Source of the DNA: Eledone cirrhosa | Taxonomy: Eukaryota | Assembly: GCA_964016885.1 (NCBI GenBank) | Contig: OZ024760.1 | Location: forward strand, 22,134,001-22,198,000 | Direction of reading: 5' to 3' | Length of the DNA stretch: 64,000 bases | In this document: positions 375 to 50,868 of the stretch, one piece after another | Layout: each line of letters opens with the position of its first letter | How positions within the stretch are numbered: position 1 is the first letter of the stretch | The notes under the pieces: model-generated | Databases searched by the model: none | What the model saw: the letters and a program-made list of their open reading frames with translations, nothing else | Told to the model about the DNA's origin: nothing | Translations under genes and position numbers: made by a program

Positions 375-640
375 TGATTAAAAGTTTAACAAGGTTCAAT
401 GAATTAATCAATGAATAAAGTTTCACAACAGATTAGAAGCATCCTACAGCGGGTTTTCTGGAGTTATTAATATTACTTCAAAATATTAATAAATATAGAC
501 ATTCATGTGATCAAATATATTTTATTATACATATTTCAGAGGTACTGAGCTATTTCAACAGTACGTCCTCATCAGATAAAATAAGTTGATGCTTGACATA
601 CCTTGACTACGTTGATGGTTAAAATTCAGTCATGGCAGTC
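375..640 (-). mobile_element. Penelope-like pLTR unit, family A (single arm)
   Basis: Between (TA)n tracts; carries an HHR; homologous to 41655-42048. Confidence 0.75.
518..583 (-). ncRNA. Type I hammerhead ribozyme (family A)
   Basis: Minus strand reads UAUUUUAU-CUGAUGA-GGACGUACUG..CAGUACCUCU-GAAA-U-AUGU-AUA^-AUAAAAUA, with an 8-bp stem I and a 10-position stem II with one C.C mismatch. Confidence 0.85.
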
Positions 641-654
641 ATATATGTATATAT

Positions 655-868
655 AACGAAGGAAATGTGGTAAGGAACCAGGTGAACCATAACGCACCAA
701 AGTACTCAATACTTAGGGTAATAGAGTGGGTAATAGGAACGAGTAGGACCCCGACGGCTGAGCTCAAGCCGTTTCGACGGCTAATTCTGGACTCCAGAAT
801 TAGCCGTCTGTCCAGAATTAGCCGTCGAAACGGCTTGAGCTCAGCCGTTGGGGTCCTACTCGTTCCTA
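655..868 (-). mobile_element. Family C fold-back unit (half-HHR pLTR)
   Basis: GAA-ACGGC-UUGAGCUCA-GCCGU-C^ occurs in both arms; inversion at CTGGACTCCAG; (TA)n flanks. Confidence 0.75.
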
Positions 869-1084
869 TATATATATATATAAACACACACACACACTGT
901 GTGTGTGTGTGTGTGTGTGTGTGTGTGTGTGTGTGTGTGTGTGTGTGTGTACATACATAGTCACCCCATTCCACTTGTATAACTGCCACATGTTAAATTC
1001 CATTCTGTTAAAGTTTATTTATCTCTGAGGAAAGAATTTCCATGATTATGTCTGAAAAACCATTCACATCCGTTATTTATGTTG

Positions 1085-2370
1085 ATAACGAAGACGGTGA
1101 GAGCGGCGATGACGGTGGCGATGACGGTGACGATGATGGTGGCGATGACGGTGACGATGTTGGTGCCGATGATGGCGGCGATGACGGTGATGATGATAAA
1201 GCCGATGATGATGAAGACGATGGTGACGATGATGGCGGCGATGACGGTGATGATGATAAAGCCGATGATGGTGACGATGATGGGGGCGATGACGGTGATG
1301 ATGATAATGCCGATGATGATGGTGATGGCGATGATGGTGACGATGACGGTTATGATGATAATGCCGATGATGATAAAGCCGATGATGGTGACGATGATGG
1401 TGGCGATGATAAAGCCGATGAGGGTGACGATGATGGTGGCGATGACGGTGATGATGATAATGCCGATGATGATGATAGTGACGATGATGGCGGCGATGAC
1501 GGTTATGATGATAATGCCGATGATGGTGATGACAACAGTGCAGATGATGATGACGTTAAGGATGATGTTGTTGAGTGGTTGTCATTCATTGTTGATGTAG
1601 TAGTTGTTGTAGTACTAGTAGTAATAGTGGCAGTAGTAGTAGTAGTAGTAGTAGTAGTAGTAGTTGTAGTAGTAGTAGTAGTTGTAGTAGTAGTAGTAGT
1701 AGCAGTAGTAGTAGTAGTAGTTGTAGTAGTAGTAGTAGTAATAGTGGCAGTAGTAGTAGTAGTAATAGTGGCAGTAGTAGTAGTAGTAGTTGTAGTAGTA
1801 GTAGTAGTAGTAGTAGTAGTAGCAGTAGTAGTAGTTGTAGTAGTAGTTGTAGTAGTAGCAGCAGTAGTAGTAGTAGTAGTAGTCGTACTAGTAGTAATAG
1901 TGGCAGTAGTAGTCGTAGTTACAGCAGCAGCAGCAGTTATAGTAGTAGTAGTTGTAGTACTAGTAGTAATAGTGGCAGTAATAGTAGTAGTTACAGCAGC
2001 AGCAGCAGTAGTAGTAGCAGTAGTAGTAGCAGTAGTAGTAGTAGCAGTCTCCTCAGCATCACCATCATCATCGTCAACAACAACAACAACAACAACAACA
2101 ACATAAGCAGCAACAACAACAACAACAGCAACAACAACAGTAACAACAACAACAACAACAACAACAACAGTAACAACAACAACAACAACAGCAACAGCAA
2201 CAACACAACAGCAACAGCAACAACAGCAACAACAACAGCAACAACAGCAACAACAACAACAGCAGTAACAACAACAACAACAGCCACAACACCAACACCA
2301 ACAACAACACCAACAACAGCAACAGCAACAACAACAACAGCAGTAACAACAACAACAACAACAGTAGCAA
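1085..2370. repeat. Compound trinucleotide repeats (GAT/GAC/GGC)n, (GTA)n, (CAA/CAG)n
   Basis: Seen directly; source of the poly-D/poly-V ORF 1042-2106. Confidence 0.95.
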
Positions 2371-2852
2371 AATGAAGGAAAAAAGCTTACATTCCGGTTA
2401 AATCCTCATAATTTATTCTCCAATACAAATATGTAGGAAGTGAGTTCTAATTTCCGGCTCTGCAGAATAATATTTTTATTAGCCAATCCTAAATAATCGT
2501 TTTTTTTTTTGGAAAAAAAAAAGAAAAAAAAACCCTTCATAATCTTGACTCCAAAATTTACTTTCCTCCCCTCCAGGGGCTTAACAATATTATAATTCAG
2601 GAAAAATGTAAAACAAGAAATACAGTAATAAAATGTTTCATATAATGTCTCTGCTATAAAGACAAACAATTTTCTAAAAGATATTTAATAAAACTTGTCT
2701 CTCTCTCTCTCTCTCTCTATCTATCTATCTATCTCTCTCTCTCACTTTTTCTCTGTCTGTGTCTCTCCCTTATATGACGCACACACATCCCCCCCCCCAT
2801 ATACATTAATATATAGTATACAATACAATACATACATACATATATATATATA

Positions 2853-3055
2853 TAGGAAAAAGTATGACCCCGACGGCAGAGCTAAAGCCGTTTCGACGGC
2901 TATTTCTGGACTCTGCAGTCCAGAAATAGCCGTCGAAACGGCTTGAACTCTGCCGTCGGGGTCATACTTTTTCCTATTTCCCACTCTACTACCCTAAGTA
3001 TTGAGTACTCTGGTGCGTTATGGTCCATCTGGTTCCTTACCACAATTCCTTTGTT
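2853..3055 (+). mobile_element. Family C fold-back unit (subfamily C2)
   Basis: Inverted arms around CTGGACTCTGCAGTCCAG; tail contains GTATTGAGTAC; (TA)n flanks. Confidence 0.75.
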
Positions 3056-3185
3056 ATATATATATATATATATATATATATATAATCTCGCTGTCCCTCT
3101 CTCATATATATATATATATATATATATATATATATATATATATACGATATTAAACAAATGGAAACTATATTTATAAAACCATATT

Positions 3186-3250
3186 TATTTCATTATATAT
3201 ATTTCAGGGATACCAAGTTACATTATGGTATACCTTCATCAGACAAAATA
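3186..3250 (-). ncRNA. Type I hammerhead ribozyme (family B, inverted arm)
   Basis: Near reverse complement of 3390-3454 with intact CUGAUGA/GAAA core. Confidence 0.8.
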
Positions 3251-48701: not shown

Positions 48702-48846
48702 ATAGTAGCAAAATATTACTTCATGTGCAAACAAAGAATCGACCGACAAGATCCCAAACCACATTCGTTTACCGAGTGAAGTAGAACACATTAAATCAGA
48801 TCAGACCAAGAAATAAATATTGGTTTTCCATTCCTGATACAATCTA

Positions 48847-49222
48847 CTGGTCGAAACCCCTGGCAGAAGGATCAGCGTGAAATAAAGTGTCTTGCTCAAG
48901 GACATAACGCTTTACCCTCTTAATGCTGGTCGCAACCCCTGGCAGAAGGATCAGCGTGAAATAAAGTGTCTTGCTCAAGGACATAACGCTTTACCTTCCT
49001 AATGCTGGTCGCAACCCCTGGCAGAAGGATCAGCGTGAAATAAAATATCTTGCTCAAGGACATAACGCTTTCCCTTCCTAATGCTGGTCGCAACCCCTGG
49101 CAGAAGGATCAGCGTGAAATAAAGTGTCTTGCTCAAGGACATAAGACTTCTCCCGGTCTAGTAATTGAACTCGCAACCTTACAATTGCGAATCCAATTTT
49201 CTAACGACTAAGCCACGCGCCA
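48847..49222 (-). repeat. 79-bp tandem repeat (~4 copies) of the SINE S2 CORE-like segment, followed by the SINE head
   Basis: Unit starts at 48847, 48926, 49005 and 49084. Confidence 0.85.
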
Positions 49223-49789
49223 ATTTTTCTCAAATGAAATCTTAGTATTTCCTACCAAGCCTTAAATTTCCTGTCCTGCAGTCTTAAATAGTTATAAAAG
49301 AGGTCACATGATTGTCAAAGTATCATTTATGACTGAAGTATTCTTAAATAGCAGACAAGCTATCATTTTAAACTACGTTAATTTCAAATGATGGATGAAC
49401 TATCATATATCTTTAAAGTGGTTTTAAATTAAAACGTTCGGTGACATATATGAAACAAGGGAGATGAAAAAAAAAACTTGCCTCAACTCTTAATTGTAAA
49501 TCTTTAATTTTTAGTTTTAAATTTTTATTAATTCTTTTTAATTGTAATACTCAAGATTTGATAATATGAATTTTACTAATACATCGAAACCGGTAATACA
49601 TTATATACTTTATATACTTTATATACATTATAAAACTCTTTTTTAAAAATAATTGTCCCTTTCATTTTTTCCGTGCTATTTTCAATCTCACCCCTGCCTT
49701 CTCTCCATCTCTCTCATATAAATATATATTTGTTCTGTGAAAAGACCACCACCACCACCACCACCGCTGCCGCCACCACCACTTCCCAG

Positions 49790-49932
49790 CATAGTTACGT
49801 CCCTTTACGATCTGAGTTCAAATCCCGCCGAGGTTGACTTTGCCATTCATCCTTACGGGGTCGATAAAATAAAGTACCAGTAATACACTGGGTAATTTGC
49901 TGGCCTTGTGCCAAAAGTAGAAACAATTATTA
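49790..49932 (+). mobile_element. SINE S1, 5'-truncated
   Basis: B-box, central domain and tail. Confidence 0.8.
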
Positions 49933-50159
49933 CTATATATATATATATATATAGATATATTAAAATAACCGATTAAAGTTTAAGCAAAGAATTGCTCTAG
50001 GGTTCTTATATATATGATATATATTTATCCTTATCGAGCCCTCTTACGATTTTAGTCTTCACATTTATTATTATCATTATATAGAAACACAGAAACAAAA
50101 TGGCGTAGGACAGAACAAAGGAGAGGCACAGAAGCACAGAAACAAAGAAAGGAATCCCC

Positions 50160-50204
50160 AGTCACTGAAGAGGTCACAGAGTGTGTGACGAAAGGACTAT
50201 GACT
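50160..50204 (+). ncRNA. Hammerhead ribozyme motif (family L), slightly decayed
   Basis: AGUCA-CUGAAGA-GGUCACA-GAGUG-UGUGAC-GAAA-GGACUA^-UGACU. Confidence 0.65.
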
Positions 50205-50445
50205 ATATATAAACAACTATCTGGTTGTGGAACCAACCAACCAACCAGAAATTTATAAATTTATAAATTTGTAAATTTATAAATATATAATAAACTGAAG
50301 TGAAAGCAACTGGTGCGTGTGTTTCTTATTGGCAACATGACCCTCCCAAAGTATAACAATATCGGTTTCAACACACGATTTCAGATAAAGAATCTTTCTA
50401 AACAAATTCAGAAACGAATTATATATATATATATATATATATATA

Positions 50446-50868
50446 TGGAAAGTTATATTTAAAATTGTTGGGTTACAACTAGTAAATATTTATAACTGAT
50501 ATAAAAGCACTCGACAAATATTTGGAGTATATTTACAATATTAAATAAATGGAAAACTATATTTATAAAACCATATTTATTTCATTATATATGTTTCGGG
50601 GATATCATATTAACAATATGCTATGCCTTCATCAGACAAAATACAATATAAACAGTTTTATAGATAAATAGATTCGACATACCGTAATAACACCGACTTG
50701 CATTTTAAGAGGTTAAACTGGCAGTTTAACCTCTTTATTTATCTATAAAACTGTTTATATTGTATTTTGTCTGATGAAGGCATAGCATATTGTTAATATG
50801 ATATCCCCGAAATATATATAATGAAATAAATATGGTTTTATAAATATAGTTTCCATTTATTTAATATT
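50446..50868 (-). mobile_element. Family B2 fold-back unit with HHRs at 50578-50643 (-) and 50763-50828 (+)
   Basis: Tail at left; fold-back at AAACTGGCAGTTT, then a ~35-nt skip in the short arm. Confidence 0.8.

Follow-up and report, generated by a model that had tools for sequence, protein, structure and literature searches.

Family-specific 5' limits on hammerhead-bearing stubs of probable Penelope-like origin in the curled octopus Eledone cirrhosa

A 64,000-nt stretch of the Eledone cirrhosa genome (assembly GCA_964016885.1, contig OZ024760.1, positions 22,134,001 to 22,198,000; hereafter the window) contains eight insertions of a superfamily of short units that carry hammerhead ribozyme motifs, all of them solo or arranged head to head. 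We refer to the four families as A, A2, B1 and B2, or collectively as A/B; by alignment they are mutually homologous from the ribozyme through the tail. We find that each family has its own 5' boundary, an upper limit that about half of the copies reach, with no universal motif and no obligatory turn into an inverted arm. On balance, the explanation that best joins our observations holds that the A/B units are probably stubs of the terminal repeats (pseudo-long terminal repeats, pLTRs) of Penelope-like element (PLE) retrotransposons.

A preliminary description of this DNA had proposed that three families share the boundary TGGCAGT (ACTGCCA on the opposite strand). We found this motif at 633, 36560 and 50719, as had been claimed, at the homologous ends of three related families. 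Measured to the first base of the antisense hammerhead core, their distances are 64, 68 and 90 nt, in good agreement with the 65-90 nt given before. The family A end (633-639, minus strand) reads TGGCAGT, one C, and then TA repeats, while at 36560 and 50719 the motif lies at the centre of a long palindrome whose loop is GGC, again as described. The single C (640) was considered as a cap signature and rejected, since it is missing from the other solo copies. The chance of TGGCAGT is ~5e-5 per site, and the 7-mer is identical between the families at 7/7 positions, compared with 18/32, 18/37 and 14/37 (38-56%) in the leader behind it. Because the families are homologous, the three sites reflect descent and are not independent events. 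TGGCAGT occurs on the plus strand at eight other sites, none of them in these elements: a TAG microsatellite accounts for five and another repeat for two, and one is unassigned. A dispersed repeat (38880-38960, 39239-39455, 14846-15204, 47245-47748 and 49783-49933), which resembles a tRNA-derived short interspersed nuclear element (SINE), has TGGCAGT in an A-box-like context in its head.

The three cited copies are a solo stub and two palindromes. The family A stub (378-639, minus strand) lies in TA repeats and runs from the 5' limit through the leader and a type I hammerhead motif, with core CTGATGA at 569-575 and stems I-III predicted around it, to a long tail ending 152 nt past the predicted cut. 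The A2 insertion consists of a tail-less arm (36400-36566, minus strand; 55 nt past the cut), which carries the template-true TGGCAGT at 36560-36566, and a long-tail arm (36567-36825, plus strand; 152 nt past the cut; core at 36626). The B2 insertion at 50719 has its core (50629-50635) and limit (50719-50725) in the long-tail arm (50447-50725, minus strand; 139 nt past the cut); its tail-less arm (50726-50868, plus strand) is missing 36 nt of leader after 50735. Five insertions of the superfamily had been omitted earlier. A_41800 (41660-42046) is a family A palindrome whose loop is asymmetric and which falls 9 nt short of the limit, and the B2_13453 palindrome (13277-13722) turns at GTTGAAC, ~6 nt short. 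B2_57975 (57975-58092, plus strand) is a solo tail-less stub cut ~16 nt upstream of the core, so that the limit is not reached. The B1_3320 palindrome (3145-3587) turns at TGG-AGG-CCA(T), and B1_8240 (8063-8242, minus strand) is a solo tail-less stub with the same end position as B1_3320.

With all copies taken together, 3/6 A/A2/B2 insertions end at TGGCAGT, and none of the six passes this limit. Both B1 copies, the folded 3320 and the solo 8240, share one end, ..TGGA(G/A)G(C/A)CAT (2/2). As a control we used family D, which comprises 13 TA-targeted stubs unrelated to A/B (656-866, 2855-3054, 23592-23781, 26887-26980, 42485-42674, 45190-45368, 46212-46379, 54970-55157, 55180-55282, 57290-57457, 57481-57619, 58520-58668 and 58928-59065). 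These contain the GAAAC-hairpin-GTC half of a hammerhead, and no CUGANGA core was found in them. The 5' limit of D is AGTCCAG, whose first A is reached exactly in 7/13 copies and to within 2 nt in 9/13. Assuming uniform ends over 15-60 nt, with the limits taken from the same data, the probability of the pile-up is 0.02-0.001 for the 3/6 A/A2/B2 insertions at the extreme base, 0.07-0.02 for B1 (2/2), and 2e-5 to 5e-9 for D (7/13).

These results narrow the original proposal. ACTGCCA did not hold as a motif shared beyond the three cited copies: B1 and D are limited by other motifs, which rules out a universal one. On the sense strand, every family limit begins with A. The coincidence of boundary and fold-back stands for the three cited sites but is not general, since 2/4 A/A2/B2 palindromes turn there; turning only at the boundary is thereby ruled out. 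A non-random common terminus, and with it a fixed 5' end of the template, is supported in the window by the pile-ups in A/A2/B2, B1 and D and by palindrome centres free of TA, but about half of the copies stop short. Solo, non-folded copies (633, 8242 and 59065) end at the same base as the folded ones.

All A/B arms have a type I hammerhead motif, in which CTGATGA separates an 8-bp stem I from a long stem II, and GAAA separates the latter from a short, palindromic stem III, ATATRTAT. Across 13 arms, 93.8% of cells were paired, compared with <=57% in slid controls, and stem II showed two-sided changes in 5/9 pairs, for a structure drawn from the same sequences and arms that are related to each other. 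The core is altered in both arms of B2_13453 (CTGAGGA) and in B1_8240. We speak of predicted ribozymes throughout. A search of Rfam with A and B2 gave no hammerhead match. An Rfam scan of the window gave only sub-threshold microRNA matches driven by microsatellites, and no hammerhead, among the 150 of 588 matches listed.

Every A/B copy is inserted in TA repeats, in which target-site duplications are unreadable. The units have two alternative 3' ends, 47-59 nt or 138-152 nt past the predicted cut, and both the tail-less and the long-tail end are present in public reads too. All of the A/B palindromes (5/5) combine one long and one short arm, differing by a tail of ~90-100 nt, so that a tail is found at one end only. 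A hammerhead, a one-sided tail, a head-to-head inverted copy with a palindromic junction, and an AT-rich or (TA)n target are marks of PLE insertion. Published work lists as such marks an inverted 5'-truncated copy, a one-sided tail, TA targets and a hammerhead (PMC8557442). TA targets are combined with hammerheads in Hydra- and Neptune-type elements (PMC8557442), and pLTRs of 193-218 bp have palindromes at their 5' end and also occur solo (PMC3846280). We also considered that the leader might be the end of an open reading frame (ORF), and this was ruled out by a frame that is not conserved.

The arrangement of the two arms bears directly on how the inverted arm is built. The template-true arm across each palindrome centre was called by comparison with solo copies. 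The tail-less arm extends further 5' in 3/5 A/B palindromes (A2, B1_3320 and A_41800); in the B2 palindrome at 50719 the long-tail arm is template-true, as the fold-back model of the preliminary description needs, and B2_13453 is symmetric. In A2 and B1_3320 the boundary lies on the tail-less arm, which lacks ~90-100 nt present on the long one. Among the 11 two-armed D copies, 8 have the tail-less arm closer to the limit and 2 the long arm, with 1 tie. The arms of D_55180 do not overlap at all, the long arm stopping 100 nt short of the limit while the short arm is complete. Because copying of a tail-less complementary DNA (cDNA) cannot add a tail, target-primed snap-back of one cDNA is insufficient; it cannot build A2 or B1_3320, and as the whole mechanism it is ruled out by the arms of 3/5 A/B and 8/11 D copies. 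The hairpin-like junctions ACT/ATT-GGC-AGT (A2/B2) and TGG-AGG-CCA (B1) fit self-priming as such. A second cDNA, which we prefer and which requires that both target ends be primed and the two products united by way of the hairpin at the 3' end, or the trimming of a free hairpin on either arm is needed for the inverted arm. Later deletions at palindrome centres could account for some of the D cases and for the 36-nt gap of the B2 insertion at 50719.

To ask what sets the limit, we turned to the leader. A motif conserved in the alignment of the four A/B families, GTATGTC (GTACGTS in B1), lies 38, 38, 43, 37 and 35 nt inside the limits (595-601, minus strand, 38 nt inside, in A; 36522-36528 in the tail-less arm of A2; 50676-50682 in the long-tail arm of B2, and lost with the 36 nt from the other arm). 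We regard this motif as a putative splice donor. The hammerhead core follows 19-40 nt after it. Penelope of Drosophila virilis has an internal promoter, with a 75-bp intron beginning 46 bp after the transcription start (PMC2377424) and ending at the hammerhead, at ribozyme helix I (PMC4209133). Chlamys-3 has its start site and a 5'-untranslated region (UTR) intron both within the pLTR (PMC8557442), and transcription of autonomous PLEs starts inside the pLTR (Schostak 2008, PMC2377424; Craig 2021, PMC8557442). A TA run is present at 0/6 palindrome centres, and the 40 nt next to the limits are predicted to fold weakly, at -0.8 to -4.5 kcal/mol. Because the donor-like motif is placed as in Drosophila Penelope, and because of the TA-free centres, the weak folds and the like ends of solo and folded copies, the internal promoter of the pLTR likely starts transcription at the family limit, with ACTGCCA at 633-639 as the likely start in family A. 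The stubs would then likely be run-off cDNAs of the RNA leader.

We envisage the following route. The RNA would begin at the A of ACTGCCA, and its source may be a full PLE mRNA or the transcript of a stub. The PLE enzyme would nick TA-rich DNA and begin the cDNA ~50 or 140-150 nt past the ribozyme cut; a cDNA that meets no early stop would run off the 5' end of the RNA, and its 3' end may then pair with the nearest complementary triplet (ACT/ATT), seeding the inverted arm. Both target ends are probably primed, one per start site, and the two cDNAs would be joined head to head; because of this double priming and joining, either arm could carry the boundary. Given AT-rich DNA, a purified PLE protein nicks both strands and extends them, and its cDNAs start at two sites inside the RNA, which define the tail (PMC11167929). 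Since the PLE reverse transcriptase (RT) starts inside the RNA, an enzyme starting in the 5' leader of any PLE transcript could yield stubs, and a fixed RNA start is thus by itself no proof of a SINE nature, which had been suggested for these units. A 2013 paper favoured an antisense template for inverted copies and left sense versus antisense undecided (PMC3846280); a sense template with pairing of the cDNA 3' end would fit the copies seen here.

Several observations weigh against this combination of pLTR stubs, promoter start and double priming. The number of copies is small, and all of them were counted in one window. Among 96 window ORFs searched against Pfam (96 of 100 candidates), there were 0 matches to RT or GIY-YIG, so that no autonomous partner was seen in the window; the search gave 1 weak, unrelated match. 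The A/B units show no conserved reading frame, and the alignment shows no acceptor site conserved across the A/B families. The rare core variant CTGAGGA in both arms of B2_13453 favours one molecule over two independent cDNAs. In three D copies, 4-7 extra letters at the junction may be upstream template. Outside the window, contigs of the public run X1 on the B2 arm had a depth of ~1,000,000 at the core and 83,549, 19,355, 4,019 and 1,151 in the last four bins before the limit, a depth that is ambiguous because the alignments break at 50683 and 50705, where related subfamilies differ. Within the final 40 nt ahead of the B2 limit the depth drops by a factor of 73, versus 5 at the fixed long 3' end. 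Strand-switch joints were located at 50554, 50571/50650 and 50650, with none at 50719-50725, among the 12 of 401 loose ends listed; the same 12 included no continuation upstream of the B2 limit. The four public runs used for the B2 arm comprise two reduced-representation libraries and two contig sets with edge effects. Most copies in this sample, then, stop earlier or diverge, and the depth profile speaks against a sharp peak at ACTGCCA.

Other readings of the same copies have to be set against these. It is conceivable, if doubtful, that the unit is a SINE-like non-autonomous element of 260-280 nt with a wholly internal promoter, whose own transcript is copied in trans by a PLE enzyme. This is compatible with our preferred explanation and differs from it only in the source RNA. 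The very high density of insertions (8 A/B and 13 D in 64 kb) speaks for it, as do the distinct subfamilies, the lack of a conserved frame in A/B, and the fact that no unit is joined to coding sequence; non-autonomous PLE derivatives are also in print, namely MRC1 in Chlamydomonas (PMC8557442) and animal retrozymes (bioRxiv 10.64898/2026.07.22.740005). However, leader copies of autonomous elements would show the same features, the D tail ends in an open ATG frame with synonymous changes, and the tandem arrays of non-LTR retrozymes are missing, with no head-to-tail tandem among the 8 A/B insertions. As for classical SINEs, A and B2 had no Rfam match to a tRNA-, 7SL- or 5S-derived RNA polymerase III head. 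Rather unlikely, in our judgement, is a scheme in which one cDNA self-primes to a full hairpin before integration and an endonuclease trims either arm at the short site, with the fixed start retained. The tidy 3-nt-loop junctions and the variant common to both arms of B2_13453 would be explained in this way, and self-priming with endonuclease resolution of the tail has already been published (PMC8557442, PMC3846280). On the other hand, two RT start sites account for the tail in vitro (PMC11167929), and the non-overlapping arms of D_55180 would need a later deletion.

The remaining readings dispense with a promoter start. We think it improbable that the limit is an RT stop, set by structure or sequence on a longer RNA such as the full PLE 3' UTR, where TGGCAGT-type micro-hairpins arrest the enzyme and start the fold-back, leaving ordinary truncation debris with a hotspot. 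Turns at other micro-palindromes (GTTGAAC at 13453; the read joints at 50650), the turn of the 33709 family inside its own ribozyme, and the steady decay of depth towards the limit all fit such arrest. Against it, the solo copies at 633, 8242 and 59065 end like folded ones, no A/B copy passes the limit, and the last 40 nt fold weakly, as given above. Least credible, and in our view very improbable, is a founder effect, in which one truncated ancestor fixed the boundary and read-through transcripts of TA-flanked copies passed it on. The homology of A, A2, B1 and B2 agrees with this, and the TA repeats adjoining solo copies could be template or target. Yet a read-through cDNA would fold in TA, and the absence of TA at the six centres argues against it; moreover, the 7-mer was kept while neighbouring sequence drifted, and the unrelated family D has a limit of its own.

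Comparison with described systems places the stubs in familiar surroundings. The pLTRs of endonuclease-bearing PLEs (Arkhipova 2013, PMC3846280; Craig 2021, PMC8557442) are alike in being terminal units of ~200-280 nt with solo copies, and in their head-to-head inversion, junction palindrome, one-sided tail and proposed self-priming; the TA-repeat targets of the Hydra, Neptune and Naiad clades (PMC8557442) are those of A/B. Unlike the published inverted and solo pLTRs, here a stub pair makes up the whole insertion, the tail measures ~90-100 nt as against 30-40, and each family has a single base at which 5' ends accumulate. D. virilis Penelope (PMC2377424, PMC4209133) has, all inside the pLTR, the order that we predict for A/B: start, ~40 nt, GT donor and hammerhead. 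Its intron ends at ribozyme helix I, whereas in A/B the core lies 19-40 nt past the donor-like motif with no common acceptor, and its start site and splicing were measured, whereas those of A/B are predicted. The green anole element Poseidon (Frangieh 2024, PMC11167929) showed in vitro the AT-rich target, two internal RT starts and extension of both strands that we propose; its ORF starts within the ribozyme, whereas the A/B units show no conserved frame. Neither head-to-head stubs nor a fixed 5' limit is taken up in the sections consulted of the Poseidon study. Non-LTR retrozymes (bioRxiv 10.64898/2026.07.22.740005) are likewise pLTR-related, short and non-coding, with a type I hammerhead in each unit, but they form head-to-tail tandems with monomer ends set by ribozyme cleavage, whereas A/B are solo or head to head with a limit 64-90 nt upstream of the core.

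Pattern scans of viral, metagenome and genome collections gave 0 matches. A less strict pattern returned 20 from the metagenomes, and BLAST matched none of these to the window. No short motif of A, B or D turned up in the supplement of Craig et al. (PMC8557442), where wrapped lines may conceal matches. We found no report of a fixed limit on such stubs, or of twin priming in PLEs, in the full-text literature, a scope that excludes subscription papers and repeat databases; an octopus repeat annotation (PMC13282606) and a D. virilis survey (PMC12910113) add nothing on a fixed limit in the portions available.

Family D offers a few further observations. In two copies (45190-45290 and 55215-55232), ATTTTT(T) stands just before the short arm and may be filler or upstream template; if the latter, the resulting TTAGT is what we would presume to be an initiator-like site. 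At the end of the D tail, an ATG opens a frame (MVHLVPYH..) in which the variants show synonymous changes, and this may possibly be the start of a PLE ORF. A pLTR plus tail ending in an open frame has been seen in Adineta (PMC3846280).

The window holds other repeats of similar appearance. Family C (37365-37873) is a larger palindrome with a hammerhead motif in each arm and an unpaired centre of ~40 nt, in which no donor-like motif was noticed. Another hammerhead stub family is found at 37143-37305, 42697-42973 and 15579-15702; its stem III, ACCACTGGT, resembles by eye that of Hydra-1_Obim in the supplement of Craig et al. (PMC8557442), and the 37143 copy has its end near a CCTCCA motif like that of B1. 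A further stub family (33709-33864 and 63360-63500) has one copy that folds back inside its own ribozyme region, without the core. Families A, A2, B1, B2 and D and the 33709 family share, in the stretch of tail between the two 3' ends, a motif resembling TRTYGAGTRCTT, which can also be seen by eye in Hydra-2_Amil of Craig et al. (PMC8557442); it is a candidate enzyme-binding site. At 24090-24325, inverted 48-nt arms surround a long TA run and lead on into a B-like long tail, next to another palindrome at 23874-24073. Three copies of a TA-flanked repeat of 350-370 nt (10239-10610, 24940-25311 and 58113-58458) are 92-95% identical, and no hammerhead core was found in them. The window also has a tandem array with a period of ~107 nt (21828-22796) and further, unassigned palindromes (14704-14818, 27350-27617 and 57862-57953).

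Solo and inverted pLTRs, junction palindromes, self-priming, a pLTR start site with intron, and non-autonomous PLE derivatives are already in print, and the fixed-limit stubs are a real, modest regularity in a known element type. Were the limit a mere truncation hotspot, the stubs would be ordinary PLE debris. A bolder reading, which we offer tentatively and hold to be doubtful, joins the pieces: the commonest PLE insertion in the genome would be a leader-only 'strong-stop' product, begun within the 5' leader of the enzyme's own RNA on both target strands at two sites, run off at the capped end and joined head to head; with the whole internal promoter on board, it could then be transcribed by RNA polymerase II and re-copied as a ribozyme-bearing SINE-like element. 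The origin of PLE pseudo-LTRs and of head-to-head inversions was named as a next task in 2021 (PMC8557442). If the strong-stop reading is true, such stubs would give PLE start sites at single-base resolution and decide between a sense and an antisense template for head-to-head inversions. Should the stubs end where the RNA starts, with either arm able to be the complete one, thousands of genomic copies would become a read-out of the mechanism.

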